Below, in pieces: positions 6,382 through 59,714 of a stretch of 64,000 nt of DNA. The notes under the pieces are model-generated. The model did no database searches, was not told the origin of the DNA, and saw only the letters and a program-made list of their open reading frames with translations. Positions within the stretch are counted from its first letter, which is position 1; each line of letters begins with the position of its first letter. The stretch comes from Eledone cirrhosa (taxonomy: Eukaryota): the NCBI GenBank assembly GCA_964016885.1, contig OZ024740.1, positions 105,896,001-105,960,000 of the forward strand, written 5' to 3'. Made by a program: the position numbers and the translations under genes.

Positions 6382-6383
<2 letters not shown>

Positions 6384-12300: not shown

Positions 12301-12363
12301 TTGTTATAGCGTTCAAAATTTACAATACCTTACAGAGCCGAGCCTCCGTCAACCATAGCATTC
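6382..12363 (-). mobile_element. Full-length Tx1/L1-clade LINE (family A, copy 1), frameshifted
   Basis: ORF1 pieces 11173-11601 and 9932-11443 with CFRCGSKNHLRAFC knuckle; APE from 10023 (SINARGL, SET, GDWN, YLDR, TDH); RT 7424-8947 (YADD); C-terminal CPRC..ETVLH..C; (AAT)n on both flanks. Confidence 0.93.
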
Positions 12364-12441: not shown

Positions 12442-15400
12442 GTTTGTTTGTTTATTTATGTTCGTCTACAGTGTGATAAGGCCACACAAAAGTCACATGG
12501 GGTGACGAAACTACCGGAGACGATGAATTCACCGGTGGTTATGTAACCATACATTCGCCAATCCTGGATAAGAGTGTTTAAATGTCGAACCTAAACAGTT
12601 CGAATAACGGTGAAATGGAGACTAGAATGTCATGTGAAAGACTCTCACCCAACAGGTGCTCCCTGGCTCAGCCGCAGGGACCTGGCTGTCAACCAAATAC
12701 TGCTGGTGTCGGAGGAAGAAGAAGAAGAAGAAAAGGGACCAGAACCAACCTGACGAAAGAAATGAATAGAACTGTTATGCAATGTTACCTGAAGAGTAAC
12801 CCCAAAGGAGAAAGGCTATAGGAAAAGGATGCATAACATCTGGAACGAGATTGGTCTATTTAAATTAGATGAACAAAAATTGGCCGGGCAGGCTCGGGTA
12901 ATAAGAACTAATCGGTGGATAAGCGAGCTGGAACTGGAGGAACTGAGCAGAGAGATTAGCTTGGAGATGGAGAGTGGAGTATAACAGGCAAACGAGCCAG
13001 TGGGAAATGAAGGTGAAGAGATCGAGAGAACGGAGGAACCACCCGAAGCAGACAATGATCTGAATGCTGAGATAAATAGTACTTGGAAGAGAGATACGGC
13101 CACTGAGGAGATGAATGCTGACGGGCTAGAACAAGATTTGGTTGATATCCTAAACTTAGTGGTAGATGAATTGAACAATGATAGTGGGAAACCTATGAAC
13201 CTAAGATTTGTAGACAGGAAAAAGTTAAAAGTATCAACAGCTAAGGTAAACAAAGTCATCCCATACCTTGAGGCGAGGAGCCTTCACCAGTGCAACAATA
13301 TCCTCAAAGCAACAGCAAATACGGTGAGGAAACTACTTGGTATAAAAACGAGAGGAAACAACAGACAAGAAAGAGCAGAGCCTTGCTGGAAGAAACGACT
13401 GAGTGGTCAAATCAGGGAAGTGAGAAATGACAGTGGAAAGCTTGAGTCCCTACTGAATGGGACACTAAAAAACATATACACTACAAATAGACGGGAAATA
13501 AAGTACAAAACTAGGAGGAAAAAGCTAAATATTATCATAGAGGAACTGAAGCAACGCATTGTAGCAAAGAGTGCAAAAATCAGGCGATACGAGAACAGAG
13601 TCAATTAGTATAGACAGAACCGCATGTTCGACAACAACCAGAGGATGTTGTTTGGAAAGCTTGAAGGGAAAGAAAGAGGCAACGACTTGATCCCTGAGGC
13701 GGAACAAACTAAAACATTCTGGAGAGGAATATGGGAGCAGGATGTTAAACATAATGACTAGGCAGTGTGGATTGAGACAGTACAGAAGGAGATCAGTGAA
13801 CAGGCACACCAACAAACTGATTTGAGTATCACAGTTGAAACTCTTAAGGGGCAGGCCAAAAAACTAACCAAATGGAAATCACCAGGCCCAGATGGTGTGC
13901 AGGGGTATTGGATTAAAAATATAACATCCCTCCACCCGAAACTGACAACCATGTTCAATGACTGCTTGATGTCAGGTGAGGTACCAGAGTGGTTGACAAA
14001 AGGTACCACAGTTCTGATAATGAAAGACCGAATCAAGGGTAATGATGTTACCAACTATAGACCTATCACATGTCTGTCCGTAATGTGGAAACTGTTGACG
14101 AGCATTGTGTCTGAGGAAATCTACCATCACCTCCACACAAACAACTTGTTACCGGACGAACAGAAAGGACGCCGAAAGAAGTCACGTGGTACAAAGGACC
14201 AGTTACTTATTGATAAGATGGTAATGGGGAATTGCAGGAGGAGACACACTGATCTTGCCATGGGATGGATAGACTACAGAAAGGCATTTGACATGGTGCC
14301 TCATTCTTGGATCACCAAAAGCCTGGAGATCTTCAAGGTGGCAGATAACATCAGACAGTTGTTGGGCAAGAGTATGAGGTCCTGGGAAACAGAGTTGACA
14401 TCAACTGGAGAATCCTTGGGAAGCGTGAAGATCAAGAGAGATATCTTCCAGGGAGATAGCCTGTCCCCTCTGTTGTTTGTCCTTGCCCTGATGCCCCTGA
14501 CCAGTGTACTGCGAAAAGTGAGAGCAGGATACAGGTTGGGAAAGGGAGCCCTTACCATCAATCACCTCCACTTCATGGACGATCTTAAGCTCTTCGGGAA
14601 GAGTGAGAAGGTGTTGGATGTGCTTGTTGACACTGTCCGTATTTTCAGCAATGATATATGTATGCATTTTGGTATTAGTAACTGTGGAGTCCTTGTGATG
14701 AAGAGGGTAAATTGAGCAGAAGTAACTGAATCCAGGTACCACAGGTGGGATGATAAAGAAAATTGACATTGAAGAAGGATATAAGTATTTGGGCGTTCTG
14801 GAGGCTGATGCCATCAAGAACAAAAAAATGAAGGATTTGTTAAGAACTGAATATATTCGGAGAGTAAGGAGCGTATAAAATCACATCTGAACAGTAGGAA
14901 TGCCATAAGTGCAGTAAATACCCGAGCTGTGTCTATTATTAGGTACAATGCGGGAATTCTGAGATGGAATGTTGCTGAACAAAAAGAATTGGATAGGAAG
15001 ACTAGGAAGCTATTGACTATCTACAACATGTTCTACAAGAGGAGTGATGTCGATAGACTCTACTTAAGGAGATCTGAGGGTGGAAGAGGTTTTATCAGCA
15101 TAGAGGACTGTGTTCAGATGGAGAAAAACAACCTACACAAATACGTGACTGATAGTAAGGAGCCAATGCTCAGAACTGTACTGAAGGAGGGGACAATAGG
15201 CCAGGGGATTTCCAAGGAGGAAATAACATCAAGGAGAAAGAGCAGCTTTCAGGAAAAATCCCTTCATAGTACCTTCTTTGAGAGAACTGAATTTAGAGAT
15301 CCACAGACATGGAACTGGTTGAAAAGGGGAGACCTTAAAAAGGCTACAGAAGGAATGTTAATGGCTGCGCAGGAGCAGGCCCTCAAAACGAAGTGGTTGA

Positions 15401-16109
15401 AACACCACATTTACAAGGAGGAGGCTAGCCCACTGTGCAGGATCTGTGGAGAGAGAGAGGAGACTGTGGCTCACATTGTATCCGAGTGTAAACACCTAGC
15501 CCAGACTCATTATAAGGGCTGGAAACATGATGTGATGGGCAGGGTGATCCACTGGCACCTATGCAAAGTAAACAATTTACCACATTCTGAGAAGTGGTAT
15601 GAGCATAAGCAAGAGGCGGTGATAGAAAACGATCAGGTGAAGGTGCTGTGGGATTTTAGGATACAGACGGACAAGAAACTGGAACACAATAGACCTGACC
15701 TGGTGGTTTTGGACAAAGAAAAAAGATCGTGCCTGATTGTGGATGTGGCCTGCCCATTCGACACGAGAGTGCAAGAGAAGGAGAGGGAGAAAATTAACCG
15801 ATACCAGGACTTAAAGTGGGAGGTAAAAAGGATTTGGAACTGCCATGAATTCAAAGTGATCCCGATTGTCATAAGCGCACTAGGGACTATCTCAAAAAGT
15901 TTCCAGGGATGGTTAAAGAAAATCGGCCCCTTCACGCTTTTTGGAACGCTTCAAAAGGCATGCTTGCTGGGAACAGCAAGAACCCTCCGATACGTCCTGA
16001 ATATCTGAGGCTGCAGGTAGTGGCTTGATATTCATTTCAACAAACTTTCCAGTTAACCAACATCAATGACTGAGACTCAAAGAGTAATAACAATAATAAT
16101 AATAATAAT
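12442..16109 (+). mobile_element. Apparently full-length R4/Dong-type LINE (RT + RLE), family B, disrupted
   Basis: ORFs 12582-16008: WKSPGPDG, YRPITCL, IFQGDSLSP, FMDDLK; CRICG..ETVAHIVSEC; RPD..D..K...Y RLE; ends in (TAA)n at 16085-16109. Confidence 0.88.
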
Positions 16110-16177
16110 GATTTCTTTATTGGCCACAAGGGCTCACATCAAGGAAAACATCACAGACGGAACAGGACGGTACGATG
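16110..16177 (-). mobile_element. 68-bp 3' stub of Tx1 family B inside an (AAT)n tract
   Basis: Reverse complement matches ~47631-47700; AAT repeats on both sides. Confidence 0.85.
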
Positions 16178-17129
16178 TAATAATAATGAGGACGATTTTT
16201 TTATGTCTTCCTTACGTTTATTGAGTAGTGACGCGTGTTTGGCTATTAAGGATGAAGCTTGGGTCTGAGGGGGCTCTTACCTTTTCTGTGGTGTGCTTAC
16301 TTTGTAAACTATATATATTCTTAAAGGGTTTTTTTTTACTAGAAAAAAAGTGATTAAGGATTGTGGCTAGTGTGTGAAATGAATATGAATAAATAGATGA
16401 ATGAATACATGAAATAGTTGCTACACTAACTATATGGGCTAACTTATACACCGATACCCCCCCCCCCCCCGACACACACACTCATATACAGAGTATACGT
16501 AGCTACAGACACCCATTCACACGTATATATAAACACATGCCTGTACCCCTGCATATACACACACTCAGATATATACGTGCTCATAGGTCCAGACGTTCAT
16601 ATAACTATATCCATCTGCATGCTTGTAGCCATATATATACAGGCGTAAGTATATTTGTATGTACTAGTAATATGGCGAGATAAATATTCTAGAGGAATAT
16701 ATAATTGTAAAATAGAAAATTATTTGGATATGTATCAGAAGGTTGAAAATGTAATAGTAATAGGAAATACATGTAATAGTAATAATAACGATGATAAAAT
16801 TGGTGATACAAAGGAAAGTAATGATATTAATTGTAGTAATAATAGGATGCTTGTGGTGTATGTGGGTGGCTGGTGTGCACGGGGTATGTTCATCTGGTGA
16901 CTACATGGTGATATGTTTAATAATGAGGGACATGATAAAGAATATAATATTAACAAGAATAACAATGGTAATGAATGTAACAGTGGTAACGAGGGCGCTG
17001 ATAGAGTTAATGAGACATGATAATAATTTTGGTAGTTAATAGGATGTGAACGTGCCTATTGTTGTCTGTGTTCAGATGGTTAGGTTTTGGTCCCTCCGTG
17101 GTTTATGTCCGAATACCATGGCACAGAAT

Positions 17130-17655: not shown

Positions 17656-17857
17656 GGACATGGATGAACGAAGTGAATTTTAACTTGTTGATTTATACTG
17701 CTTGTTTATAAATATACTGCGGAGTAAACAGACCCACCTGCGCTCTTCGTCGAGTGCTCTGCCATGCATACTGAAGTATCGGTATTTAAGCAACACAATT
17801 TACTTACTGGTAATTGGGTAATACACAATATCAACCTTATCTTATTAAAGCAAGACT

Positions 17858-18146
17858 GGCCCGAGTGAATGGGTCTACTCTGAGTATGTATCTGTAAATT
17901 AAAGGTGGAAAACTGGGAGAGGGCACTTGCCTTCGTGGTCAGGGTCACTGTGGCCTTTTACTGGGCTTTCTCCACAAATGTCCCTCCGAAGTTTCCCCCC
18001 TATTGGGGAATTTTTCATTGGTATTTTTTTCTTAAATCCTCTGTTTTTGTTTTTTACACGCAGAAATGCCCATTTGTACCGTCCTGTATTGTTCTGCACT
18101 GTCCTTAATGTCTACTTTATGTAAACCCTTGTGGTTAAGAAAGAAA

Positions 18147-18148
<2 letters not shown>
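17858..18148 (+). mobile_element. Tx1 family A 3' stub
   Basis: Matches ~53229-53513 and the reverse complement of 6382-6670; followed by (ATT)n at 18149-18202. Confidence 0.9.
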
Positions 18149-24420: not shown

Positions 24421-24522
24421 GGTGACGGTGGATTGGCAGTATCGGTAGAGAGTCGGACACCATGTTTTGAAGCATAGAGTTACGTCCCTTTATGAACTGT
24501 GTTCAAATTCCGCCGAGGTTAT
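24421..24522 (+). mobile_element. tRNA-derived SINE, 5' fragment
   Basis: Matches the head of 57088-57280; B-box-like gttcaaattcc. Confidence 0.75.
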
Positions 24523-29518: not shown

Positions 29519-30203
29519 TAAGGATGGTTGATTGTCAAAATCTTTATAGGAATGGACAAAATTCCTTGCGGTATTATTTTTGTTCTTACATTCTGAGTTC
29601 AAATCCTGTCAGAGTCAACATTGTCGTTCACCCCTTCGGGGACGATAAATAGAGAACCATTTGAATACCGAGAGCGTTTATTATCACTTTCTTTTCTCCC
29701 TGAAAGAAATTATATGTGGTCAGACATGGACTGTTTCAGTCAGCTTTAATATATCTTATGCATGTCGTACGTAAGGGCGAAGCCACTATGTCTCCTTCAT
29801 GAGTTGGTTGAGGTCACAAACAAAAAAGGAAAGAAGGAAGGAAAGTTTATATCATTGGACGAAATATTTTTAAATATTTATTTTTTTTGTACGTACTGAG
29901 TTCAAGTACCACTAGAGTCGACTTTAAATTTTATTATTCCAGGGTCGATAAAGTTAATTACCAGACTAATGCTGGGTCGAGGTTCTCGATTACACCCTTT
30001 TCAAAAATGTATCAGTTGTATCGCAGTATCGGTAGAGGGTCAGATGTCATGCTTTGCAGCAAAGAGTGACGGCCCTTTATGGTCTGAGTTCAAATCCCGC
30101 CGAGGTTAACTTTGCCTTCCATCCTTACGGGGTCGATAAAATAAAGTACCAGTAATACACTGGAATAATTGCTGGCCTTGTGCCAAAAGTAGAAACAATT
30201 ATT
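29519..30203 (+). mobile_element. Cluster of SINE copies (degenerate at ~29519-29670 and ~29895-29970; better preserved at ~30020-30203)
   Basis: ctgagttcaaatcc..ttgccttccatccttacggggtcgataaaataaagtaccag..ggccttgtgccaaaagtagaaacaatt. Confidence 0.75.
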
Positions 30204-35017: not shown

Positions 35018-35052
<35 letters not shown>

Positions 35053-35316
35053 CTTATTTACTGGTTTATTTGTTTATCTGTTTGTTTGTTTGTTTGTTAG
35101 TTAACTCATTCATTTATTTATTAATTTATGAGTGAATGATTAGGTAATGAATAGATAAAAGATAAAAGATAGGTAACGAATAGTGAATGGTAAATAGTAA
35201 ATAATAAATAGTAATTAATTACGTGATGATAATATTAATAACTTAGTAGTGATATTAATTATTTTAATCCTCTATCAGGCCCAGTTTAAAATCCACTACC
35301 ATTATATTATAGACAC

Positions 35317-35499
35317 GGTGGTGGATTAGCAATATCGGTAGAGTGTCGGACGCCATGCTTTCCAGCATAGTTACGTCCTTTACGATCTGAGATCAAATCC
35401 CGCCGAGGTTGACTTTGCCTTTCATCCTTACGGGGTCGATAAAATAAAGTACCAGTAATGCACTGGGTATTTGCTGGCCTTGTGCCTAAAGTAGAAACA
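35317..35499 (+). mobile_element. Full-length tRNA-derived SINE (Meta-domain-like core) with 16-bp TSD
   Basis: TSD attatattatagacac at 35301-35316 and 35500-35515. Confidence 0.88.
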
Positions 35500-35644
35500 A
35501 TTATATTATAGACACATGTATGAGTGCGAACGAGTGCGTGTTTGTGCCTATGCGTTTATGTGTACTTATTTGTATGTATGTATGTGTATGTAGGCGTGTG
35601 TGCTTGTATATGTGTATGTGTGTGTATGTATATATGTATATATA

Positions 35645-36001: not shown

Positions 36002-36006
<5 letters not shown>

Positions 36007-39620: not shown

Positions 39621-42618
39621 CTTAACTATCTGTAACACTAACTTCAAAAAACGAGACAATCACTTGATCACCTATAGATCGGGAGAACACACAAGCCAGG
39701 TAGATTATATCCTTACCAGAAGACGTGACAGAGTGTCTGTTGTTAACACTAAATCCCTCCCCCATGAAGAATTCACCTCCCAACATAGACTGATAATTAG
39801 CGACCTCATAGTCAGGACAAGACGTACTAGACAGCGGAAGAGGACTATCCTCAGGAGAAAAATATGGAAGCTAAAGGACCCCATAGCCAGAAATAAATTT
39901 CAAAGCATATTACTTGACGCTTTCGACAGTAAGGAAGAGCAATTAGAGTCGTATAATATAGAGGAACAGTGGGAATTCCTGAGAGCAAACCTGCTGACGG
40001 CGGCAGACGATGTCTGTGGCTGGAGCAGGCCTGTAGGTAGGAGGAGAGTAACATGGTGGTGGAACAGTAAGGTGGAGGAGTCAATTAAGGCCAAAAAGCA
40101 GGCTTGGAAAGCATGGCGGGATGGGGGAAGTAGAGAAGACTATCAAGTGGCCAGGAGGGAAGCTAGGAGACAAGTGTACTTCGCAAGAAGGGAAGCAGAG
40201 GAAAGAAAGTTCAAGCATGTTCTACAACGTGAGGACCAAAAACGTGAGGCGTTCAGGATTGCCAGGCAATGTGTCAAGGAAAACCGTGATATTGTCGGGG
40301 AGAAGTATGTACTTAACGATGATGGCATACTTGCCATCACCGACGCTGATAAGAAGGTAGCTTGGAAGTGTCACTACGAAAGGCTTCTAAATGAGGAGAA
40401 CAAATGGGAGAAAGACAGTCTCCCCCACATCGACCCAATAGAGGGACCAGCAGTGTTAGTCCAGGGTAGTACAATAAGCAAGGCAATCAAAGATATGAAG
40501 ACGGGTAAGGCGGCTGGTCCTTCGGAAATAGTTGCTGAGATGCTGAAGGCATCTGGTTCGGTGGGACACACCATGGTCACCCGGATAGTTAACCAAGTCG
40601 TACAGAATGGGGTTGTTCCGAAGGACTGGCGTAGCAGCATCATCGTTAACTGCTATAAGGGAAAAGGAGATGCCCTAGATAGGAGTAACTATAGAGGCAT
40701 TAAATTAATCGACCAGGTCATGAAGGTCACGGAAAAAGTAATAGCGCAACTAATCAGAGAGAGAATTGATCTAGATGAAATGCAGTTCGGATTTGTGTCA
40801 GGCAAAAGTACCACAGACGCTCTTTTCATTGTACGACAACTACAGGAGAAGTACCTAGCTAAAAGTAAACCCCTATACTTAGCTTTCGTCGACTTGGAGA
40901 AAGCCTTCGACAGAGTCCCCTGTTCCATTATCTGGTGGTCTCTTAGAAAACTAGGTGTTGACGAATGGCTTGTGAGAGCTATACAAGCCATGTATAAAGA
41001 AACAGTCAGTAAGGTTAGAATTAACAACGAATATAGTGAAGAGTTTAGCGTAAAAGTTGGTGTCCATCAGGGCTCTGTTCTTAGCCCCCTACTATTTATT
41101 ATTGCCCTTCAGGCTATAACAGAGGAGTTCAAGACCGGCTGCCCATGGGAACTCCTATACGCAGATGATCTAACGCTCATAGCTGAATCAATGACCGAAC
41201 TAGAGAAGAAATTCCAAACATGGAAGCACGGCCTAGAATCAAAAGGCCTTAAAATTAACCTGGTTAAGACTAAAGTTCTAGTTTGTAGGAAAGAAAATAA
41301 GGCGGCAGTCCCATCTGGGAAATGGCCATGCTCAGTGTGTAGGAAAGGCGTAGGTAGAAACTCCATTTTATGTCCCAAATGCAAAGTATGGGTGCATAAA
41401 AGATGTAGTGGGATCACAGGTAAGCTAACTAAGAACATAGATTTTACATGTGGCCGGTGCTCTGGTGCAATAAGTAGCAGCAAGTGCCCACAAATACTAG
41501 CTCCCTCAACTGCGCAGAGGGTTCTATAGAAATAGTGGACAGCTTCCGTTACCTGGGTGACAAAATCAGCAGTGGGGGAGGGTGCTCTGAAAGTACAGTA
41601 GCTAGAGTCAGAACTGGATGGAAAAAGTTCAGAGAGCTTATACCACTATTAGCCGCTAGAGGGTTCTCCCTAAAAATGAAAGGCAGGTTATACGATGCCT
41701 GCATACGAACAGCAATGCTGCATGGCAGTGAGACCTGGGCATTGTGTGCAGAGGATATACGCAGACTAGAGAGGAACGAAGCTTGCATGCTCCGCTGGAT
41801 GTGCAATAGTAATATACGTGAACGGCAAAGCATAAACGAACTAAGGAAAAAATTAGAAATAAGAGGGATCAGATGTTGTTTACTCGAGAGAAGGCTACGT
41901 TGGTACGGTCACGTGATGCGCATGAAAGACGACAGCTGTATAACAAAGTGCAGGGCAATAAAGATAGACGGTAGCCACGGAGTAGGCAGACCCAGAAAAA
42001 CATGGAACGAGCTGATAAATTCCGACCTCACACGCTTACACCTCTCCAAGACAATGTCACTGGACCGAGACCTTTGGCGGTACTCAGTAATAGAGAAGAC
42101 CCGCCTTACCTAAATACAAAGTAAAAACCTACTACAGTCAGTAGGCATCTCTATCACCCCCCCCCCCCCCGTCCCACCACCTCCACCCCATCCACACCGC
42201 CCCTTTCAATGTAAAGTTATGTTGGTCCCACAACATCCAGGCCGAAACAAATGAGATCGTGTAGGTGTCACGACAAAAAAACACACAGTCCACGCTGTAA
42301 ATGTGGCCGTGTAGGCAACACGGTAAAAACCTCCCAGCCCCACACTGTAAATGTGGTTGGTGTTAGGAAGGGCATCCAGCTGTAGAAAACCCGCCAGACA
42401 GTCCACGCTGTAATGTGGCCGTGTAGGCAACACGGTAAAAACCTCCCAGCCCCACACTGTAAATGTGGTTGATGTTAGGAAGGGCATCCAACTGTAGAAA
42501 ACCCGCCAGACAGTCCTATGCGAGCAAGACAACCACTCTTGCCTCAAGTGGGAAAACCCCCGTCCAAACCCATGCAAGCGTGGAACACGGACGCTAAACC
42601 TGATGATGATGATGATGA
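39617..42618 (+). mobile_element. RTE-clade LINE, 5'-truncated within APE, one frameshift, (GAT)n tail
   Basis: ORF 39664-41529 (SQVDYIL, SQHR, NYRGI, DLEKAFD, GVHQGS, YADD) plus 41484-42113 (YLG, LRWYGH, GRPRKTW); ~113-bp tandem duplication in the 3'UTR at 42285-42516. Confidence 0.92.
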
Positions 42619-43399
42619 TATATAATTCACAAGAATCAAAGCTATGTTCAAAGCATTCATTCACTTACAATTGTTTCATCCAAACTTAGGCTTGGTGTCT
42701 TCGGAGCAGTTTTCAATGTTTGTACACATAATTGACCTCCTTTCCAACGCAAGAGACATACAGATACATATATATATATTGATGTACAGTGGAGTGACAT
42801 ATATTATACTATATTATTTCTGTATAGCAATTCAAATTCAAAAGCAAAATAAAAATAAAAATAAAAATAAAAACAAAATTAAAACAAAATTAAAATACAT
42901 TCGGCAGTTAACACAGATAATGCAAGATGATAGTTTGTTAGTCAGATGTAGTAGTTAGTGTATGCGTTAGTTACACGTGGGGCATGCAAGTGTGTCTCAT
43001 TTATATATGATTATTGTGTGGCAGGGTGTTACATGTAATACAAACACTTTAAGCGGGTAAGTAAGAGTATTATGGTGGTTGTAGTGGTAAGGTATTTTTT
43101 GTATATAATAAAAAAGTATGTGTGCAGAAAAATAAAAATAAAAAGGAGAAGCAAGAAGCAAAAGAAAGTTATGGTTTTCGTATCCACCACCATTTTCACA
43201 TCAGGAAAATAATACATTGTTTTTACATCCATCACATAAGTAACGATGATTCCATATTGGATGTTTGATGCATTAAATTAAATTATTTTAGCTTATTGCG
43301 GCTCAGTGTTATTTAATCCAAATTAATATAATAGGTTGATTCTGCTGCGAGAATTTACAGCGGTTTATTATCCGGAAGTATGTGTTTAGTTAAGGGGAT

Positions 43400-46300
43400 T
43401 TAATGCGTGGCAAACGGTCTGCCACAAAAAACAAATAACAAAAAAACCCTTAGATTCACCCTCCAAAAGCGAAGGCATACAAAGAGGGGTAAAGGCAGCA
43501 AGGAAACTTGCAGCAACACCACCACCATCACCACCACAAGCACCACTGACAACAACAACGACACCACCACTAGCATCACCAAAAACACCAACAACGCAAA
43601 CACAACAAGACACACACACCAAACAGCAACAAGAAGAAAACAGCAACAAAATCACCCCTCCCCCCCAAAAGTACACAGCCATAAACATGGCAAAAAAAGA
43701 ACTCATACAATATATAATGCAGCACACAGACATCACAGAAAAAAACTACTATACCCCACCAACACCAAGAATTCTCCCGACAAACATAAGCATCATCGAA
43801 ATCTCAATAGAACAGTACAAACCTTTAAAACAAAAATTCACCAACGCAGTTGGAGACTTCACAGGGTCGGTTACCAAGAGGATATACACTGACATCCTCT
43901 TGGAAACACCCATGACCAGCGAAAGGGATGGTTCTACTGTTCCTTCACCACACCAACAAGGTAAGTGACTCTTTCTCACTTGCCCCGTTTCTCATCCAAC
44001 ATGGCCGTACTCAGAATAGGTAGTATAAATGCACGTGGCCTGGGGTCATCTTGGAAGCAGGGTCACCTGCTCAACGACCTCAGGTCACTAAACATAGATG
44101 TGGTGGCCATCAGTGAAACCAGAATCTCCGAAGCACAAGCCTTTGCACCGATCTTCGGCGGCTACGATGTATACGCTTCTCCCAGCCGTCCAGGATCGGG
44201 GGGAGGGGTCAACGTTCTTTTTCGGAGAGGCTTGATCTCGCCATCTTCCTAGACCCAGAAGGTAAGTCGGTGGGGATGGACGTGACCTGCAGCGAAGGCA
44301 ATGCTTTCAGGCTAGTAGCCGTCTACGCCCCAACGGGGGCAGGACGGCCAGATTTCTTCAGACGTCTAGAGACCTTTCTTGGAACGTCCCGCTCTTTAGT
44401 GTTAGTGGGCGACTGGAACGGTATATTGGATGCACGCTGGGATCGTGTGTGGCTAGTGGATAGGGGAGGAGGGTGCAAGAGCCTCACCAACCTGCTCAGA
44501 GGTTTTGAATTGTCTGACAGGCATCGACTGGATCACCCGAATGTGCCAATGTGGACATGGACAAACCGCATCGGGTCATCCAGATCGTATCTCGATAGGG
44601 TATTCTGCAGAGAACTAGATAAGGCTAGTATAAGTTGTCCACAATTTAAAATAGTCGACTACACAGACCACAAATTTGTGATCTGTGAGATCGACATAGA
44701 CAGACTTCATAGACAAGGGCCCGGTTACTGGAAGCTGAACGCGTCTTTTCCAGCGCGCAAAGGCTACAGAGACCGTATTAGCGTATTAGTTAAGCGGGCA
44801 TTGACGGGAGCGATCGTCAACAACAGGTGGTGATTCGCCCTGAAAAGGGCAATTAAAGTAGAGTCGATTAGGTTTAGCAAAGGAGTAGTGATAGAGGAAA
44901 ATAGAGTAGAGGGAGAGCTAGTCAGAAAGCTAGTAGAGGCGTTTAGGACAGGCATCGCAACTGACGTACTTGCGGCGAGATTGGCACTCGACCAATTCTT
45001 CAACGCAAAACACGAAGGCTGCGTTGTCAGAGCTACAGTGCGTGCTCTGAAATACGAGGGGACAAAAGCCGTCCAATGGGCCCGGGTGGCAGAGGCGCGA
45101 TGTGGCAACAAATCCACAATTCGGTCTTTGTCTGACCAAAACGGGTGCGTGATGCTCGAACCCGAGCGGATGTGTGAAGCTTTTCAGCAGCACTTTGCTG
45201 AACTGTTCGGGAGCGGCGGTGGCCCGGATAGGGGCATGGACTTCAGTGCATACCTCGACGGACTGCCTCGGCTCTCGACGACCGCAGCACAGTGTTGCGA
45301 AAAGCCAATAACAGCCGGTGAAATACGGGAAGCGATGGCTAACTGCAAAAGGGGGAAATCGCCAGGTTTGGATGGTCTGCTCTACGAGCTTTATGCATTT
45401 ATGCCAGACTTTTTCAGTGACATCTTGGCAGACGTCTACTGCAACTGGCAGCAGAACGGGAGCATTCCCTGTTTTGTGAGTCGGGGAGCAGTGGCGCTGC
45501 TGAGAAAAGACCCGAACAAGGGGGATGTTATCGATAATTTCAGGTCCATAACCCTGCTAAACGCGGAGTTCAAGATTTTGGCAAAGATGTTAGCAACGAG
45601 GTTGGCGCTTGTCGTCAAGGGTCTGGTGGGAGAGGCGCAGACATGCGCCATTCCGGACAGATCCATACACGACAACCTCCACCTCATGCAATACATCATA
45701 GAGAGGGTGGTTAAGGAACCCGGCAAGGGTGGGGCCCTGATCAACTTGGATCAATCCAAAGCATTCGATAGGGTCGACCATCGGTATCTGGCGGCGGTCC
45801 TCGAGGCAGCCGGTTTCGGGCCCGTTTTCAGGCGTTGGATCGCAGCAATGTACAGCGACATTGGCTCAGTTGTGAGAGTGAACGGTCACCTGTCACAGCC
45901 GTTCAGCATCATGCGCTCAGTCCGCCAGGGTTGTTCCCCCTCGTCCCTCTTGTACGTATTGGCTCTCGAGCCGTTACTGCACAAACTGGGGGCGATGAGG
46001 GGCGTCCCACGCGAACTAGGATGCGGGAAATCCGAGTCGGCTTACGCTAACGACGTCACCGTGGTGGTGTCGAGCACCAGACACGTCCAGATGCTCGGCA
46101 CCGTTCTGAAGGAATACGAAGCGGTGACAGGAGCAAAGATAAACCAGGAAAAGTCGGTGGGCTTGCAGCTAGGCACCTGGAGAGGCAAGTTCATGTCGTC
46201 CGACAGCGTCGTGGGGATTTGGACGGACGGACCGGTTAAATTGTTCGGGGTCTGGTTCGGACCGGACCTCCAGATGGAGAAAAACTGGAACGTGGTGACG

Positions 46301-47698
46301 AGCAGAGTGGCCTCCCTCACCCAGAAATGGGCTGAGAGGAAGCTGTCCCTGAAAGGCCGGGCGGAAGTGGCGAATGCGTACATCGCATCCGTCATCTGAT
46401 ACCGCCTCACCGTCGTCCCTTGCTCCAACCCAACTCGCACCAAAATGGAGCGCCTCCTCTTCCGCTTTTTGTGGAAGGGACGCGCTCCCATGGTCAGACG
46501 ATCCATCTGCTGTCAACACCCGTTGCGTGGAGGACTGGGCATGCCATGGCTGATGATACGCAAACATGCGCTGAGGCTGCGACATCTCTGGTGCTTCCTT
46601 GATGGCGAACGGGTGTGGTCGCCGTTCGCCAGGCACATTGCCACAGCTCGTCTCCTTGACGGAGCTGCAGTCCTGGGTCAGAAAAAGACCGAGGGATAGC
46701 GCTTGGAAACTGGAATGTCTCCAGGCGCTCACTGCCCTCTCCCCGTTGGGCACCAGTATCGGTGGAACATCCACCTCGGCGTTCTATAGAGGACTAGTGG
46801 AGGGGAAGAGCGACGACATTCTAGGAAAGTCCTGGGCGTCGAAGAAGATCAGCTGTTTGCTCTCTTCTGAGAACTTTCAGCCCGGGGTCTATGGATAACT
46901 TCCAAAAATCCCTGGCCTGGCAGTGCTACCGGGGAGCGCTGCCGGTTCGAGATAAGCTCTACAGGCACGGAAGTGTCGTCAGCCGAGTCTGTCCGAGATG
47001 CGCGCATAGCGACGAAACCGCTGTGCACGCACTCGTTCAGTGCCCGAGCATTGCTGACTTGTAGAGCTATGTCGAACAGTTGCTGTCGCGTGTGGGACTG
47101 ATTCGGTTGTCGACTGAGTCCATTGTGCAGATGGTCTCGCCGTCTTCCTTCGAGGAGGAAGGGCAGGTGGTTTTCATCTGCCTGGTGGCCATGGCGAAAG
47201 AGATTGTGTGGTGGACAAGGTTAAAAGGATTAAAGATAAACACTTTCCTCTTCGGCGAATCCCTAATTAACTTTTTCAAGTTTCACTTGAAGAGGAAAAT
47301 CAGGGTGGAGAGGCAAGTGTTGCTTTCTAGCAAGTTTGTTGAAAGGTGGGTGAATGTAGCGAGAATGGCCCGAGTGAACGGGCCCACTCTGAATATACGT
47401 CTGTAGTTTGAGAGATGGAATCATTGAGAGAGGGCGCTTGCCCTGGTAGTCAGGGTGGCCGTGGTCTTTTGTGTGGTTTTCGCCACGAGTAACCCTCGGA
47501 GGTTTCCCTCCTATAGGGGAATTTTTCATTGTTTCAATTTTCATTTTATTGTTTATATATATATACGTTTTGTGTTTTTTTTTTTCTTTTCTTATATAAA
47601 TAATAAAAAATATTTACACGCACAAAACCCACATCGTACCGTCCTGTTCCGTCTGTGATGTTTTTTCTTGATGTCAGCCCTTGTGAACAATAAAGAAA

Positions 47699-47700
<2 letters not shown>
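43400..47700 (+). mobile_element. Tx1/L1-clade LINE family B, 5'-truncated within ORF1
   Basis: ORF1 end 43687-43968; APE 44000-44833; RT 44888-46399; C-terminus to 47406; (ATT)n tail. Confidence 0.93.
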
Positions 47701-47757: not shown

Positions 47758-50700
47758 GGTGACCTACGTAGTAAATCGTATCATCGTGAGCTCCGCAAAG
47801 GTTTGTTGTTTCCGTTTGTTAAAAATTGCCATTTATTGAAAATTTTATAGTTAACTGTATATAAGCGCACATACATTGTTTTCCGAAAAGGACACCCAAA
47901 AAGATTGGGGCCTTGTGCCCAAAATTTAAACATTTATAATTATAAAAAAAAAATTTCTTTGAAAAAAAAACATGGAAATCTCACAGCCACACGAAGCTGA
48001 CAGCCTTCCTCATAAACTAACACCTCACACCGACACCACCATTGTAAATATTACTACGTTTGCCAACACAAAAAATTTAAGCAGTAGCAATATTTAAATT
48101 TGTCTCAGGCAGACATTCATTTCCCGCCATTACCAATGACTGCAGGTGTTAAAGCCGCCACCACCACCACCACGACAACAGAAACAAAATAAAAAAATAA
48201 ATTAACTCGTGATGTCGAAATGAATTCAACCAAAATGGACTCTTCCACACCGAACACCACTGACGTCACCACGACCACAACTGAAACTAAAATTAATAAT
48301 AACAAAAATAACAATAACAACAACAGCAACAATGACATTAAAAAAACCACCCTGAGTTTTGCCAGAGTAGCAAAACAGTGCGAAGCATTTCAGGTAACTC
48401 AGGAGGAATTAGAAAATGCCCCCCAAATGGTAAAGAAAGATGGGTACAGGGTCAGCCTCAGCCCCCACCTAATAAAATGGAGCATCGGCGCCTATGCACC
48501 GTGTCGTATCGAACAATTAATGTAAAATCGCGCCGAGTGGAACGGGCATCCGAGTCCCAAATCCAAAAAGCTTTGGGACATGTGTGGGCAAGAAAAACCC
48601 ACATCAGACGTGGGCAGAAGTATGGAACCGTGGACGTGTTCTTTGAAACACCAGAGGAGGCTAGAGAATACTCTATGGCCCCATTAAGAAGTGACGACTT
48701 CACACTCGTCCCAAGCTATTGTGGCCAGAGACATCGAAATTCCCTGGCTAATAGCGGCCGTCCTCGCCGGCATCGAAGCCAACACCAAGATAATAGCAAT
48801 AGCAAAAGAAAAGCAGGAGAACTGGTCCGGATCTGGGATGGAGCTCCTGATCCAAGCGGACCAAAAATGCATTGAGGAGATCCCAGAGGTAATAGACCTC
48901 ACTGACGGCAGCCACCTCACCGTAATTGTCGAGGGAAGAAGGCCTAGGTGTGTCGTTTGTCGTGAAGGAACCCACCTAAGGGCTTTCTGCCCTCAGGCTA
49001 AAAGGTTGAAGCCACCTCTCCTACCCACCCCAGTGACTCAACCATCAACACCACCAGTAGCAGAGATGGCAGCAACAACTGTAGCAGCAACAATAGAAGC
49101 AACTATAACAGCAACAACCCCAGCAACAGTAGCAAAATCAACACCACCACCACCCAACGCTTCAGAACTAGCACCAGCGCCTACACCATCCACTACGCCA
49201 CAACGAAAACTAACGGCTGGGGAGGATTTTCCATTCCCCGGCCTATCACAACTGGAGACAGATTGTGACGACGAGGAGTGGGAAACGGTATCAGGAAAAA
49301 AGAAGAAAAGAAACCAAAAAAGAAAAAATTCTCTTCCTTCCCACTCCAAAAACAAAATACAGAGGGAAACAAATAAATTAACAAAGAAAAAAGTTAGGAC
49401 AGATATGCCACCATCCACACCAGCATCACCATCCCCATCACCCCAAACACCAACACCACCACCATCATTAACCCCAACACTACCATCACCTACACCACAA
49501 AAGTCACCAAAATGCGAAACAGAAACAAACCCACATCAAACGCAAACAAAACAAGACAACCAAAACGATACACACTACACAGCATTAAATTTGAACAACA
49601 ACCAATTATTAGACTACATCCAACACAACACCAGCATCACAGAAAAAGACTACACAACAACCCCAAAATTCACACCACTTCCACACATACAAATCACTCG
49701 CATCACACAGAAAACGTACATGACACTAAAACAAAAATTCCCCAAAGACATCGGAGACTTCGGACAAGCACTCTCCAGGAGGATTTATAAGGACATCCTT
49801 CCTGAGGAGGCCACAAGCAGTGAAAATGATGGAAAAACCGTCCTTCCTCTACGAGAAGTAAGGTAAGTGGTCTTTCCCATCTTTTCCACTCCATTTCAAC
49901 ATGACCTCACTCAGAATAGGCAGCATAAATGCGCGTGGCTTGGGGTCGTCGTGGAAGCAGGGCCACCTGCTCAACGACCTCAGGTCACTAAACATAGATG
50001 TAGTGGCCATCAGCGAGACCAGAATCTCCGAAGCACGGGCCTTCCCACCGATCTTCGGCGGCTACGATGTGTACGCATCTCCCACCCGTCCGGGATCGGG
50101 GGTGGAGTTGCTGTGCTTTTTCGTAGATGTTTGGATCTTGCCATACGGGCCATCTTCCTGGACCCAGAAGGTAAGTTGGTGGTGCTGGACGTGACCAGCC
50201 GAGACGGGAAAGCTTTCAGGTTAGTGACCGTCTATGCCCCTACAGGAACAGGGCGGCCTGATTTCTTCCGGCGTCTGGAGACCTTTCTTGGAACGTCCCG
50301 CTCTTTAGTGTTAGTGGGCGACTGGAACGGGATGCACGCTAGGATTGTGTGAGATTAGTGGATAGGGAGGAGGGTGTAAGAGTCTCACCAACCTGCGCAG
50401 GCGTTTCGAACTGTCTGACAGGTACTGATTGGATTTCCCGAATGTACCAATGTGGACTTGGACAAATCGCATAGGGACATCCAGATCATATCTAGATAGA
50501 GTATTTTGTAGGGAAATAGATAGGTCTAGCTTAGGCTGTCCACAATTCAAGATAGTCAGCTACACGGACCACAAATTCGTGATCTGTGTGCTTGACTTAG
50601 ATAGGCTTCATAGACGAGGACCCGGCTACTGGAAGCTAAACGCGTCCTTACCAGCGCGCAAGGCCTACAGAGACCGGATTAGCGAACTAGTTAAGCGGAC

Positions 50701-53513
50701 GTTGACGGGGGCCATCGTCAACAACAAGTGGTGGTTTGCTCTGAAAAGAGCTATTAGAATAGAGTCCATTAGGTTTAGTAAGGCTTTAGCAATAGAGAAA
50801 AATAGAGCAGAGAGAGAATTAGTTAGAAAATTAGACGAGGCGCTTTGCAAAGGCATCGCGACCGACGTAATTGCGGCGAAATTGGCCCTTGACCAATTCT
50901 TCAATGCAAAGCACGAAGGCTGCGTTGTCAGAGCTAGGGTGGGTGCTCTCAGACACGAGAGGACGAAAGCCGTTCAATGGGCCCGAGTGGCGGAGGCGTG
51001 TCGTGGCAACAAAGCCACGATCCGGTATTTGGTGGACCACGACGGGCGCATGCTACTCGATCCCTGGCAAATGTGTGAAACTTTTCAGCGATACTTCGCT
51101 CAACTGTTCGAGGGCAGCGGCGGGCCGGATCGAGGGATGGACTTTAGTGTCTACCTCGACCGAATGCCGCGGCTCTCGGCCACTGAGGCGGAGTGTTGCG
51201 AAAAGCCGATGACAGCCGCTGAAGGACGGGAGGCAATGACTGGCTGCACAAGGGGTAAATCGCCTGGTTTGGATGGTCTGCCCTATGAACTTTACGTACA
51301 AATGCCAGACTTTTTCGGAGGCCTCTTGGCGGACGTCTACTGCAACTGGCAACAGAACGGGAGAATTCCCAAGCCTATGAGCCGAGGAGCGGTGGCGCTG
51401 CTGAGAAAGGATCCGAACAAGGGGGATAACATAGATAATTTTAGGCCCATAACTCTGCTAAACACAGAGTTCAAGATTTTGGCCAAGGTGCAAACAAAGA
51501 GGTTGGCGCTTGTCGTTGGTGGTCTGGTGGGAGAGGCGCAGACATGCGCCATTCCCGACAGATCCATCCACGACAACCTCCACCTCATGCGATACATAGT
51601 AGAGAGGGTAGCTAGGGAACCTGGCACGGGTGGGTTTTTGATAAATTTAGATCAGTCGAAAGCCTTCGAGAGGGTCGACCATCGTTACCTAGCGGCAGTC
51701 CTGAGGGCGGCTGGCTTTGGGCCCGTCTTCAGAGGCTGGATAGCTGCCATGCACAGCGACATCTGCTCTGTAGTGAGAGTGAACGGTCACCTTTCGGAAC
51801 CGTTCAACATCATGCGCTCGGTCCGCCAAGCATGTCCCCTCTCGTCCCTATTGTACGTATTGACTCTCGAGCCATTACTGCACAAACTGGAGACGTTTTG
51901 GGGGGTCCTGCGCTAACTAGGATGCGGAGTATCCGTGTCAGCATATGCGGACGATGTCACCGTAGTGGTGTCGAACGCCAAACACATCGAGGCGATCGGC
52001 ACTAAACTAAGAGAATACGAAGCGGTGACAGGAGCAATGATCAACCAGGAAAAGTCAGTGGGCCTGGAGCTCGTCACCTGGAGAGGCAGGTCCATGCCGT
52101 CCAACAGCGTCGTCGGACGCTGGACGGACGGACCGGTTAAAATGCTAGGGGACTGGTTCGGTCCGGACCTCCAGACGGACAAAACTGGGACCAGGTGACG
52201 AGCAGGGTGGGTTTCTCTCACCCAGAAATGGGCCGAGAGGAAGCTATCCCTGAAAGGTCGAGCGGAGGTGGCTAACGCGTACATCGCGTCCGTCATCTAC
52301 TACCACCTGACCGTCGTACCTTGTCCTAAGCCGCGCCTGACTGCGCTGGAGCGTTTGCTCTTTCGCTTTTTGGTGGAAGGGACGCGCTCCGATGGTCAGG
52401 CAGTCCATCTGCTGTCAACACCCGCTACGTGGAGGGCTGGGCATGCCGTGGCTGATGATGCGCAGACACGCGCTCAGGGTACGACATCTCCACCTCTTCC
52501 TCGACGGTGATCAGGTGTGGTCGCCATTTGCTAGACACGTCTTTTCCCAGCTGGTCTCCTTGACGGAGCTGCAGTCCTGGGTCAAGCGAAGAGCGAGAGG
52601 GAGCGCTTGGAGACTGGAATGTCTTCAGGCGCTCACAGCCCTCGACCAATCGGGCAATGTGATCGGTGGAAACTCCACCTTGGCGTTCTATAGAGGATTA
52701 GTGGAGGGGAAGATCGACGACGTACTTGGAGAAACTCTAGGCGTCGACGAAAATCAACTAGCCAATCTCTTCGGATGGACTTTCTGGCCGGGGCCTATGG
52801 ACAACTTCCAGAAATCCCTGGCCTGGCTGTGCTACCGGGGAGCTTTGCCAGTTCGGGCATGTCTGAGATGCGCGCAGGGCGACGAAACCGTCCTGCACGC
52901 ACTCGTCCAGTGTCCGAGCATTGCTGACTTGTGGGTTTATGTCGAACACCTGCTGTCACGTGTAGGACGGATCCAGCTATCAGCTGAGTCCATCGTGAGG
53001 ATTGCTCCGCCCTCTTCCTTTAGCCGGGAAGGGCCGGCAGTTTTTATCTATTTGGTGGCCATGTCGAAAGAGATAGTATGGTGGACACGTTTGAAAGGGC
53101 TGAAGACGAGCACTTACCTCTTCGGTGATGCCCTGATTAACTTTTTAAAATTTCATTTGAAAAGGAAAATTAGGGTAGAGAGGGAAGTGCTCTCTTCCCA
53201 GCATTTTGTTGAAAGATGGGTGAGAGAAGCCCGAGTGAATGGGCCTACTCTGAGTATGTGTCTGTAAATTAAAGGTGGAAAACTGGGAGAGGGCACTTGC
53301 CCTGGTGGTCAGGGTCACTGTGGTCTTTTAATGGGCTTTCTCCACAAATATCCCTCGGATGTCTCCCCCCTAATAGGGAATTTTTCTTTGTTATTTTATT
53401 ACATCCTCTGTTTTTTTTTTACACGCAGAAATGCCCATTTGTACAGTCCTGTATTGTCCTGTACTGTCCTTAATGTCTACTTTATGTAAACCCTTGTGGT
53501 TAATAAAGAAAAC
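47758..53513 (+). mobile_element. Full-length Tx1/L1-clade LINE (family A ORF2 with a different ORF1), frameshifted
   Basis: ORF1 pieces 48220-49866 with CVVCREGTHLRAFC; APE from 49901; RT 50429-52198; (ATT)n on both flanks. Confidence 0.93.
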
Positions 53514-53528
53514 ATTATTATTATTATT

Positions 53529-56500
53529 TGCATTTATCTTGCTTTATGTTTATACGAGTTATCACCAAGTCACAACCAGTGACCTCAAGAGACAACAAGG
53601 TCCGCCATGTTCAAGAAAGAACACACATATTCACACATGCATCCTTAGTGTTTAGACTTGTGATGTACTTATATTGACAGGATCTTCCTTAGTATATGGG
53701 CAGTTCCCATTAGTACTATCTTTTGTATTTCTCCTATACGCGGGTTTCCTGGGATTTGCGATAAGTAGTCGTTAGACCCCTTAGGTATCATTCCCAGAGC
53801 GCCTACAACCACTGGTATTGTTTTAGTTCTCAATTTCCGCATTTTTCCAATTTCTATCTCCAGGTCCTTATACTTGCTCAATTTTTCAAATGTTTTTATA
53901 GATACATTCTTGTCTATTGGAACAGACATATCAATTAGCAGGCATACCCTCCTTTGAAAGTCCTTCAATATTATATCAGGTCTATTTGCATCTATTTTTC
54001 GGTCTGTTTGGATTCTAAAGTTCCACAAGATTGAGATGTGATCTTTTTCAAGTATGGGAGGTGGTTGATGCTCCCACCAATTCTTTTGATGGGGCAGGTC
54101 AAAATGCTTACACATTATCCAATGTATGTATTGTGCAGCTCTGTCATGCCTGTTTAGGTATTCGGTTGGAGCTATAGGACTGCACATTGAAATTATATGG
54201 TCAATGGTCTCTGGTTGTTTTTTGCATACACGGCATAGTGGGCTGCACCCATTTTTTATTATGTTGGCTTGGTAATTTTTTGTTGGCAGACACTGATCTT
54301 GTGCGGATATAATCAGTCCTTCAGTCTCCGATTTCAGTCCAGAGGATGCCAACCACTGATGGGTTAAAGTTTTGTCAACATCAGGATTGTTAGCTCGCTC
54401 TGGGTATTTTCCATACAGAGGCTTTTCTTGCCATTTCTTAGCCAGTTTCTGTAGCAGTTCTTTCTTTGCAGTTACTTTTACCTGCTTTGCTTTTTCTGTG
54501 TTTTCCATTTCAGCAGTAAATGGGACTTCTGAAATTTGTAGTCCATTACTGTATCTTTGTGCATCTTTTGTAATGGAATATGATCTTTTGGTGCTTTCGT
54601 GTTTCAAAACGAGTTTGATCATCCAATCATGTGATTCCCTTAGATATGTGGATAATCCAATTGTTGCAGTTTTCAACGCAATGTCTAACTGGATTAACCC
54701 ACGTCCTCCTTCTTTCCTAGGGAGATATATTCTATCTATGTCTGCCTTAGGGTGATGCATTCTGTGCATGGTTAAGAATTTTCGGATTTTTGTATCGAGC
54801 CTACGGATCTCTGTGCTTGACCAGTTGATGACATTGTAACTGTAGGTTACTACTGGTATGGCAAGCGTGTTTATGGCATCGATCCTATTCCTTGCATTCA
54901 ATTCCGTTCTTAAGATTGCTCTGACTCTGCGGTAACATTCCTTCCTTATCCTTTCCCTCATTGTCGAGTGCTTGATTCCGTCTCCTTCACAAACACCTAG
55001 ATATTTGTAAGTTTGTTCTTGATCAAGCTCTCTTATCACGTTCCCCCGATCAAGATTAATGTCTGAACTCTTCAGCAGCTTTCCTCTGGTGAACGTTGCT
55101 TTGGCGCATTTATCCAGTCCAAACTCCATTTTAATGTCATCACTGAACTGCTTCACAGTGGATAATAGCCCTTGCAATTGTTCATCATTTTTTGCAAATA
55201 GTTTCAGGTCATCCATGTAGAACAGGTGATTAATGGTTTTGTCATAGACTCTATATCCATGTTTTGTTTCATTGAGCATTTTACTTAATGGTATAAGTGC
55301 GATGCAGAATAAAAACGGTGATAAAGAGTCACCCTGAAAAATTCCACAATTAATGTTAACTTCTCCAGCTTCCAGTGATTTTGTTTCACTATTCAAAAGG
55401 AGTGTCGTTCTCCATGTCCTCATACTGAATGACAAAAACCTCCTGACAACGGGGGATATTTTGAAAATCTCTAAACATTTTTCAATCCAACTGTGTGGCA
55501 AACTATCAAATGCTTTTTTATAATCTATCCAAGCAATCGATAGATTTTTGTGTCTATTATGACAATCTTCCAGTATCATTTTGTTAACCAGAAGCTGATC
55601 CTTACAGCCATATGAGCCTCGTTTACACCCTTTCTGCTCAATGGGAAATAGGTCATTTGTTATCAGGTGGTCATATGTGTATTCAGTTAGGACTGATGTT
55701 AAAATTTTATACATTGTGGTCAAGCAGGTTATCGGTCTGTAATTTTTGGGATTGTTTGTCTCATCATTCTTCGGTAGCAGGAATGTAATGCCGTTAACTA
55801 GCCATGATGGTATCTTTTCTGGCTCCTTAACTATTTCATTGTAAAGTTGGGCTAACAGCTCATGAGACTCTGTGAAGGCATTTATCCAAAAGTTTTGTAT
55901 TTTGTCTTTTCCTGGGGATTTCCATTTGCTGGTTTTTCTTAGAGCCAAGCGCAGCTGTTCAACTGTTATATTTTCCCATGTTTGTTCTTCAAGGTGAGCT
56001 GTTTCTTTCATTTGTCTGTCTATCCATGGGGCATGTATGTTATGAACTTTTTCTTCGGCCCAGATCTTTTCCCAGAATTCTTGCACTTCCTCCTTGGGTG
56101 GTATTGATTTAGCAGTTATTGTTGACTTACCAATTTTTCTGTAGAAGTTTCTTTGGTTGTTTTTGAACATATTATTGTCCTTATAGAATCTAGATCGTTT
56201 TTCAAAGCGCCTTATACGAGCAGCTTTGGCCGACACTTTTTGCTTGATTGTTTCTATCAGCATGTCTATGTCACATGTTGATCTTATACTGTACTTTTTT
56301 TTTAATTTTCTAAGTTTAGTTTGTTTAACATGTTCACCTACTTTATAGTTTGTTAAAATTTCTATGTCAGATCGGAGAAGGTTTATTTGGCGATTGATGT
56401 TATCTTGCCAAGTAGATTTCTTGTGTGAATTCCTTTGTTTTTTCATCTTCACTCCACATAAGTGAGTGGTGACTTTAGCCGATGCATAATAGAGATGATT

Positions 56501-56850
56501 TAAGTCAGTAATGTTTATTTTGTTTGTGATGATAATGTTTTTGAGAATTATGTTAGTCTTGTGTATTATCTTTTGGTTCTGTTTGGAGTTCTGGATCTTA
56601 GGGAGGGTGTCTCGTTCCCCCATGTCAGATTCTTTCATTTTCATCCATTCGATCATAATTTCATCCTTCAAGTTGGCAAGTTCATTCTCATTCATTTCTT
56701 TATCATTTACGATCTCATTATTTTCATTTGGAGTTTCATCCTGAGCATGCACTCCCTCCACTTTTTCGCTCCTTTCTTTAATTTGTTCTGTTGCCAGTGA
56801 TTCCGCCCCAACTCTGGGATAATATATAACCAGCAATTTCTCTGTCTGTC
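53529..56850 (-). mobile_element. R4/Dong-type LINE family C, long young copy
   Basis: 3'UTR matches the copies at 18203 and 21708; (AAT)n tail at 53514-53528. Confidence 0.92.
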
Positions 56851-56869: not shown

Positions 56870-57087
56870 GTGCGCGCGTGGTTGCTATCACTCTCTCTCT
56901 GCAGCTATCCCTCTCTTTTAGTCTGTCTCTTTCTCTCACTCTCACTCTTTCTCTTTGTAACTCACTAACATTCCTCACCTCTATCACTGGGGAGATGGAG
57001 GGGGATTAGGAGGAGAGAATCACTTCGTCACTTCACCTCTGCCTTTCTTTCTCTCCCCTCTCACTCCCTCATTACGTACAGACATTA

Positions 57088-57280
57088 GGGCGGTGGATTA
57101 GCAGAATCTGTAGAGAGTCGGACACCATGCTTTATAGCATGGAGTTACGTCCCTTTATGGTCTGAGTTCAAATACCGCCGAGGTTAACTTTGCCTTTCAT
57201 CCTCACGGAGTCGATAAAATAAAGTACCAGTAATGTACTGGGTAATTGCTGGCCTTGTGCCAAAAGTAGAAACAATTATT
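57088..57280 (+). mobile_element. Full-length tRNA-derived SINE
   Basis: ggcggtggattagcaga head, gagttcaaatacc B-box, cctttcatcc..gtcgataaaataaagtaccag core, attatt tail. Confidence 0.88.
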
Positions 57281-59620: not shown

Positions 59621-59714
59621 TGTTTCTACTTTTGGCACAAGGCCAGCAATTTTCCAGTGCATTACTGGTACTTTATTTTATCGACAAAGGCAAAGTTAAC
59701 CTCGGCGGGTTAAC
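59621..59714 (-). mobile_element. 5'-truncated SINE with 16-bp TSD
   Basis: ctgatttgagaataat at 59605-59620 and 59715-59730. Confidence 0.82.

Follow-up and report, generated by a model that had tools for sequence, protein, structure and literature searches.

A SINE and a Tx1-like LINE with a common predicted 3' hairpin and ATT tail: a candidate mobilisation partnership

Within the 64-kb stretch of repeat-rich animal DNA analysed here (the window), a young SINE family and a Tx1-like LINE family, which we call family A, end in the same motif, the same predicted hairpin and an ATT tail, and because of this common ending the SINE likely uses the copying enzyme of the Tx1-like LINE. We favor a partnership of the stringent type, in which the SINE is mobilised by a LINE of the Tx1 lineage, and consider it likely. 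A more specific scenario, in which a cephalopod Tx1 that targets (ATT)n recognises the CUUGU hairpin stringently, bears a second copy of it in the 5' leader and powers an abundant family of octopod tRNA-SINEs, appears to us evenly poised. A first-pass annotation of this DNA had proposed that the SINE is moved by an ATT-targeting Tx1; the end match, the hairpin and the TSDs speak for this proposal at the level of the Tx1 lineage, whereas A-I or A-II as the driver and ATT as the target of the endonuclease are candidate readings.

Self-comparison of the window revealed a single young SINE family, with six copies and a length of about 185 nt when full (Table 1). It is a short, dispersed, non-coding repeat that shows 5' truncations together with a 3' end common to five of the six copies; the 3'-complete copies are 86-93% identical in pairwise comparison, versus 91-94% for the 3' parts of subfamily A-I. 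A B-box-like match is present in all four heads that are kept and the A-box pattern in none of the four. Searches with ARAGORN and Rfam matched no tRNA in the SINE, and Rfam gave nothing above noise for a known RNA family or ribozyme in the SINE or the LINE leaders. We take the body to be Deu/Nin-like. The fold-back at the start of one truncated copy (60666-60708) is an inverted repeat of the copy's first ~20 bases, and this copy is joined to a truncated PIF1-helicase frame at 60196-60660. Older remnants that have the head and body of the young family, with different or lost 3' ends, lie at 29526-29660 (+), 29890-29976 (+), 62953-63085 (-) and 32449-32536 (+), and the CUUGU end is absent in three older SINE-like remnants (29.5, 29.9 and 63.0 kb).

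Table 1. Positions in the window of the SINE copies, the family-A elements, the control LINEs and the motifs discussed in the text
Feature	Position	Strand	Remarks
SINE, near-full copy	35317..35499	+	tRNA-like head with B-box-like motif, central body, 3' hairpin end; TSDs on both sides
Left TSD of the near-full copy	35301..35316	+	16 bp, starts ATTAT
Right TSD of the near-full copy	35500..35515	+	first bases double as the ATT tail of the SINE
Predicted 3' hairpin, CUUGU loop	35475..35487	+	outer pair mismatched in the near-full copy
SINE, slightly 5'-truncated	30023..30203	+	TSD absent
SINE, full copy	57089..57280	+	TSD absent
SINE, 5'-truncated	59621-59712	-	exact 16-bp TSDs; whole unit 59605..59730
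SINE, 5'-truncated, short 5' fold-back	60666..60782	+	TSD absent; adjoins PIF1-helicase fragment
SINE, 5' part	24426..24521	+	3' end missing
LINE A1 (A-I), full length but broken	6382..12363	-	218-nt leader, ORF1 CCHC-like, APE-RT ORF2, hairpin end; (ATT)n on both sides
LINE A2 (A-II), 5'-truncated	43440..47700	+	start approximate; hairpin stem broken; (ATT)19 tail
LINE A3 (A-I), full length but broken	47758..53513	+	within (ATT)19 tail of A2; ends (ATT)5 against B2 3' end
A4 (A-II), 69-bp 3' fragment	16110..16178	-	(ATT)3 and (ATT)6 at its sides; inside B1 tail
A5 (A-I), ~300-bp 3' fragment	17850..18148	+	(ATT)18 tail against B2 3' end
SINE-tail-like motif in A3 5' leader	47904..47932	+	window's best match to the SINE tail, 19.6 of 25 (47908-47932)
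Matching motif in A1 5' leader	12174..12192	-	17/19 identical to A3 motif
Control LINE B1	12442..16091	+	R2-group RT, restriction-like nuclease motifs, (AAT)n tail; second copy 20027-21622 (-)
Control LINE B2	53529..56884	-	R2-group, (AAT)n tail; other copies 18203-20016 (-), 21707-24415 (-)
Control LINE C	39631..42620	+	PHD finger directly after RT; (GAT)n tail

Family A has a separate ORF1 and an ORF2 with the Pfam domains Exo_endo_phos, RVT_1 and zf-RVT; a CCHC-like motif is visible in the translation of ORF1, where a Pfam zinc-knuckle match is absent. For the reverse transcriptase of A1, a Polyodon protein named YTX2 (an automatic label of its source) gives 257 bits, human L1 ORF2p 151-153 and R2 no more than 75. 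Among solved structures the best match of the family is human L1 ORF2p, followed by R2, and an ESM Atlas search returned generic RT clusters alone. A tree built from 22 of 23 rows, after removal of one that was short, places family A beside cephalopod relatives (support 97/100), all of them within a group of 19 rows that also includes the YTX2-named protein (89/96). The tree had no L1-proper row, so that the term Tx1-like rests on the scores, by which the RT is closer to Tx1 than to L1 proper, and on the automatic name. Among relatives that have a name, a protein of Argonauta hians comes nearest to that of family A (68% identity), which makes an octopod host likely. Two subfamilies can be told apart, A-I and A-II, whose ORF2 is 82% identical and which both retain the loop, the spacing and the AGAAA described below. 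Between A1 and A3 (9935-12145 on the minus and 47972-49860 on the plus strand) ORF2 is 92% identical, and the leaders and most of ORF1 are unalignable as DNA; the 5' half of the family, such a comparison suggests, may have been exchanged or be fast-changing.

The pattern CCTTGTG-N8-AGAAA-N2-ATTA has ten matches in the window, both strands considered: all five SINE ends, all five family-A ends and nothing else. As this pattern was picked after looking at the data, we added a score for the 25 nt ahead of the tail, based on ungapped, 3'-anchored identity with the tail itself excluded, against 125,920 window positions. Family-A ends reached 14.4-16.0 of 25 against the SINE (58-64%), with p from 2e-5 to 3.5e-4; 3 to 44 of the 125,920 positions equal these scores, the family-A ends themselves counted in. 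SINE and LINE stand in one register, the hairpin being followed by 15 nt that contain AGAAA and then by ATT repeats. The SINE and Tx1 end sequences quoted in the first-pass annotation are present as given, and the likeness that it had noted between them extends to three further family-A ends, at 6382 (-), 18148 (+) and 53513 (+). The end at 47677-47706, which it had listed as similar, does have the motif, but the stem is broken there.

The shared stretch amounts to about 22 nt, shorter and weaker than in published SINE-LINE pairs, for example those of bivalves, where 35-61 bp are shared at 72-95% in the available part of PMC11481361; similarity between SINE and LINE upstream of the hairpin was looked for and none was found. 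Agreement was weaker in a gapped version with three of the five SINEs (p 0.001-0.004 for the family-A ends; B2a reached p 0.04), and an unanchored nhmmer profile of the SINE recovered one of the five family-A ends, at E=1.4. Self-comparison and Pfam resolved four LINE families with intact 3' ends in the window (A, B1, B2 and C). Whether another LINE matches the SINE tail had been raised before: none of the three non-A families does, their six ends lying at background (4-9.6 of 25, p 0.08-0.89), and B1, B2 (both R2-group) and C were rejected as partners on account of these ends and of tails that differ in polarity or unit. Elsewhere, a lone CCTTGTG (31775-31808, +) that has a stem of three pairs and is followed by a tail-like stretch is possibly an old SINE or LINE end.

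The predicted hairpin, which the first-pass annotation had missed, combines a fixed loop with a changing stem, and the SINE-LINE mismatches are ordered rather than scattered. Covariation of this sort is the customary mark of tail recognition. The CUUGU loop and its closing C-G pair are unchanged in all ten ends (five SINE, five family A). The next three stem pairs are C-G, A-U, A-U in A-I and G-C, G-C, U-A in the SINE, and those next to the closing pair in A-II are C-G, G-C; three of the four stem pairs are altered on both sides with pairing kept, and 84.4% of cells are paired. Slid controls gave at most 50% of cells paired and a covariation of at most 0.17, versus 0.536 for the hairpin, a value that rests on three independent sequence types (A-I, A-II and the SINE); a pair-count shuffle control, in which relatedness is ignored, was non-significant (138 of 500). 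The hairpin is part of the minimum-energy fold of eight of the ten ends, the stem is lost in copy A2, and fold stability is ordinary for all ends (z from +0.67 to -1.65). CTTGT occurs at 139 sites in the window, 15 of which have a stem of at least three pairs, and nine of these 15 are SINE or family-A ends. Taken together, the paired changes in the stem and the invariant loop suggest that selection may act on the structure. There is precedent for such a division of labour: in zebrafish L2 assays the loop is read specifically and the stem is exchangeable (available part of PMC4176376), and a fixed loop with a variable stem has been described for one monocot L1 lineage (PMC3747384, likewise in part).

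The near-full SINE copy lies between exact 16-bp direct repeats, ATTATATTATAGACAC, and the truncated minus-strand copy between exact 16-bp repeats, ATTATTCTCAAATCAG (SINE strand), at 59715-59730 and 59605-59620. Both pairs of repeats had been pointed out earlier and are confirmed; among 2485 random flank pairs, a single one had a repeat of at least 16 nt. TSDs are present in two of the five 3'-complete copies, and for the remaining three (30.0, 57.1 and 60.7 kb) none was found, the best flank match being 4-5 nt. The ATT bias anticipated for SINE TSDs is seen in both that exist, each starting with ATTAT on the SINE strand; since ATTAT has a frequency of 0.0029 per position in the window (0.29%), the insertion sites are non-random. 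Both TSDs begin at the exact base where the SINE tail begins, so that tail and target overlap completely. A start with ATTAT fits either a preference of the nuclease or base-pairing between the primer and the tail of the RNA, and the TSDs cannot separate the two.

In length and ATT polarity the TSDs agree with family A and not with the (AAT)n- or (GAT)n-tailed LINEs. All five family-A 3' ends continue into (ATT)n, and three of six 5' ends adjoin arrays of (ATT)3 or longer (A1, A3 and A4), with one more following TTATT and two doing neither. Of the five tails, three run antisense into (AAT)n tails of R2-group LINEs, two of the three representing independent insertions; segmental duplication of the junction between A and B2 was rejected, the B2 parts being 99% identical as against 91% for the A parts. 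A preference of family A for (ATT)n sites is well supported. Unlike family A, none of the five SINEs is inside an array of (ATT)3 or longer, so that of the ATT target once proposed as common to both elements the polarity of the TSDs stands and the arrays do not; with two TSDs to go by, the insertion signatures agree in polarity and differ in array preference. Therefore either the enzyme takes short ATTAT sites as well or a sister subfamily with laxer requirements is the driver.

A plausible scenario for mobilisation runs as follows. Pol III would transcribe the SINE from its tRNA-like head, as the B-box-like motif suggests. An ORF2p of the family-A lineage would then bind the shared 3' RNA hairpin, reading the loop specifically and the stem as a shape, by analogy with the zebrafish L2 model. 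The endonuclease would nick the strand opposite an ATT-bearing site, and the freed 3' end could anneal to the AUUAUU tail of the RNA and prime reverse transcription; a second nick 16 bp off would give rise to the TSD. The SINE tail probably derives from a relative of family A. The SINE stem fits neither A-I nor A-II, and for this reason we propose that the source is perhaps a third subfamily, none such being in the window; rather than A-I or A-II themselves, a sister subfamily may be the driver.

Within the window the SINE tail finds its top match not in a 3' end but in the 5' leader of A3, which complicates a 3'-end origin of the SINE tail. The match (nhmmer E=0.042) is followed in register by an ATT-like stretch. 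In A3 and A1 the leaders are 214 and 218 nt long, with the motifs 28-49 nt upstream of the ORF1 start, and they otherwise align weakly (whole-leader score above 1000/1000 shuffles; first 130 nt, 18/1000). The leader match again points to family A over another LINE, and it is possible that the leader hairpin is a second, putative binding site for ORF2p. The SINE tail could accordingly have come from the leader hairpin, or the leader could have taken up a SINE end, with ORF2p acting on both RNA ends, the likeness of the 3' ends being secondary and Tx1 still the driver. That the A3 leader outranks all 125,920 positions with its ATT-like stretch in register, that so nearly identical a motif sits in two leaders that otherwise align weakly, and that captured 5' heads are known in Tx1 families (available part of PMC4494074) would all fit such an origin. 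Against it, the A1 motif has a different loop base, lacks the ATT stretch and matches the SINE tail poorly, and the leaders number two; we think it very unlikely.

It is also conceivable, and in our view unlikely, that the true partner, having an ATT tail and a hairpin of similar kind, belongs to another LINE clade outside the window (CR1, L2, Nimb/I or similar), the Tx1 match being convergent or the product of an exchanged 3' end. Mollusc SINE partners named in the available parts of PMC4758252, PMC4824008 and PMC11481361 are CR1, CR1-Zenon, L2 and Nimb, the family-A match stays under published levels and our comparison covered four LINE families with intact 3' ends. What argues against a partner of this kind is that the 7-mer, the 15-nt spacing and the AGAAA offset are alike in two diverged Tx1 subfamilies; insertions of CR1 and L2, moreover, usually have shorter TSDs or none. 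Our own reading is limited in that no CR1/L2-type element was seen within the window for comparison. Recognition might instead be relaxed, family A or any ATT-tailed LINE reading the AUU tail alone and the hairpin being a relic of common descent that no longer has a role. LINEs of the L1 group are mostly relaxed (PMC3747384, as available), the hairpin is weak and annealing of tail and primer would account for where the TSDs start; three stem positions nevertheless change in pairs around an invariant loop, suggesting selection, and SINE tails of about two ATT units offer little to recognise. This we regard as quite improbable. A chance match in AT-rich DNA would be in keeping with a short motif, a post hoc pattern and an unanchored E of 1.4, but the anchored p of at most 3.5e-4 comes from a comparison with the window itself that left the tail out, and pairing is kept, which makes chance barely credible.

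There is partial precedent for a partnership of SINE and Tx1. In the crocodilian SINEU/Tx1-Mar system (Kojima 2015, PMC4494074; this and the sources below as far as their text is available) the inferred driver of a SINE is, as here, a Tx1 with a target preference, and a review cites SINEU as a Tx1-mobilised case (PMC5381603). However, SINEU differs in its U1/U2 heads and poly(A) tails from the tRNA-like head and ATT tail of the present SINE, and its link with Tx1 is a common Mariner target, no LINE with the 3' end of SINEU-1 having been found, whereas here a 3' hairpin is shared; the one Tx1-SINE link that we found in print is thus without a shared tail (PMC4494074). The same source describes insertion into simple repeats, like that of family A, for the Tx1 families Kibi, (TC)n, and Koshi, (TTC)n, and for crocodilian families, (TTCC)n/(TTTC)n. 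Family A differs in its (ATT)n target, often the antisense tail of R2-group LINEs, and no ATT-targeting Tx1 appears in the part available.

An L1-group LINE paired with a tRNA SINE, as here, is known from ZmSINE2/3 with LINE1-1_ZM and SINEX-3_CR with L1-1_CR (Ohshima 2012, 2013; PMC3472496, PMC3747384), and these pairs too have a conserved loop and flank with a variable, compensating stem. They come from plants and a green alga, share ~50-80 nt and do not involve Tx1, whereas the present pair is from an animal and shares ~22 nt. SINEs with L1 tails account for 3 of the 58 pairs catalogued in the portions seen of these two papers (Table 1 of PMC3747384), all of them plant or algal, the L1 group being the stated exception to tail sharing; no Tx1 partner is listed in that table. 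A 3' stem-loop with a short repeat tail also characterises UnaSINE/UnaL2 and ZfL2-1/ZfL2-2 (PMC4176376, in part), although these are of the L2 clade and experimentally tested, while the present element is Tx1-like, has a shorter stem and is known from sequence. The partnership, if true, would extend a well-known mechanism to a new clade and be unusual for this LINE group: an animal L1-group LINE would have a tail-sharing SINE, and stringent recognition would survive in the animal L1 group. A 13-nt hairpin in both Tx1 and SINE would make it testable whether animal L1-group elements once were stringent.

The octopus tRNA SINEs OR1/OR2 and the classes tRNA-Core and tRNA-Deu, compared by their descriptions in the available parts of PMC4758252, PMC4824008 and PMC8967140, likely come from the same host group and resemble the present SINE in general build. 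Octopus repeat surveys list L1-Tx1, Dong-R4, RTE and CR1 without naming a SINE partner in the text available (PMC13282606, PMC8967140), Octopus vulgaris has active CR1 elements (PMC13282606 Table 1) and Tx1 is unmentioned in PMC5786205. In O. vulgaris, 11.6% of the genome consists of SINEs, and of 900 SINE families with recent activity 893 lack a classification (PMC13282606, in part); to know the driver by name and to have a simple tail motif as a diagnostic would help because these SINEs are so abundant and mostly unclassified, and an engine of octopus SINE expansion would, if the partnership is true, get a name. Literature outside Repbase Reports and most subscription papers yielded no Tx1-derived SINE tail and no partner for octopus SINEs, and Tx1-SINE tail sharing may already stand in Repbase entries or subscription papers.

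Several other repeats of the window deserve mention. By their motifs we take B1 and B2 to be Dong/R4-like, the analysis itself giving R2-group for both, and C is presumably RTE-like. LINE C has a 112-bp tandem duplication in its 3' UTR (42282-42516), and a related tail-like remnant lies near 31830-32000. A decayed R2-group remnant (27375-28351, -) and a small Tx1-like fragment (28750-28946, +) are both without a recognisable hairpin end. Frames at 3822-5400 (-), 34301-35104 (+) and 38058-38429 (+) gave nothing in Pfam; judging by motifs, they resemble pieces of a Penelope-type RT and a GIY-YIG nuclease, so that a Penelope-like element is presumably present. Long palindromic or fold-back segments occupy 31169-31718, 36002-36353 and 57860-58622. 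Nested LINE clusters have formed on one microsatellite at 6337-24415 and 43440-56884, where the two (AAT)n-tailed R2-group families enter each other's tails in the same sense, and family A enters R2-group tails antisense and its own tail head-to-tail.
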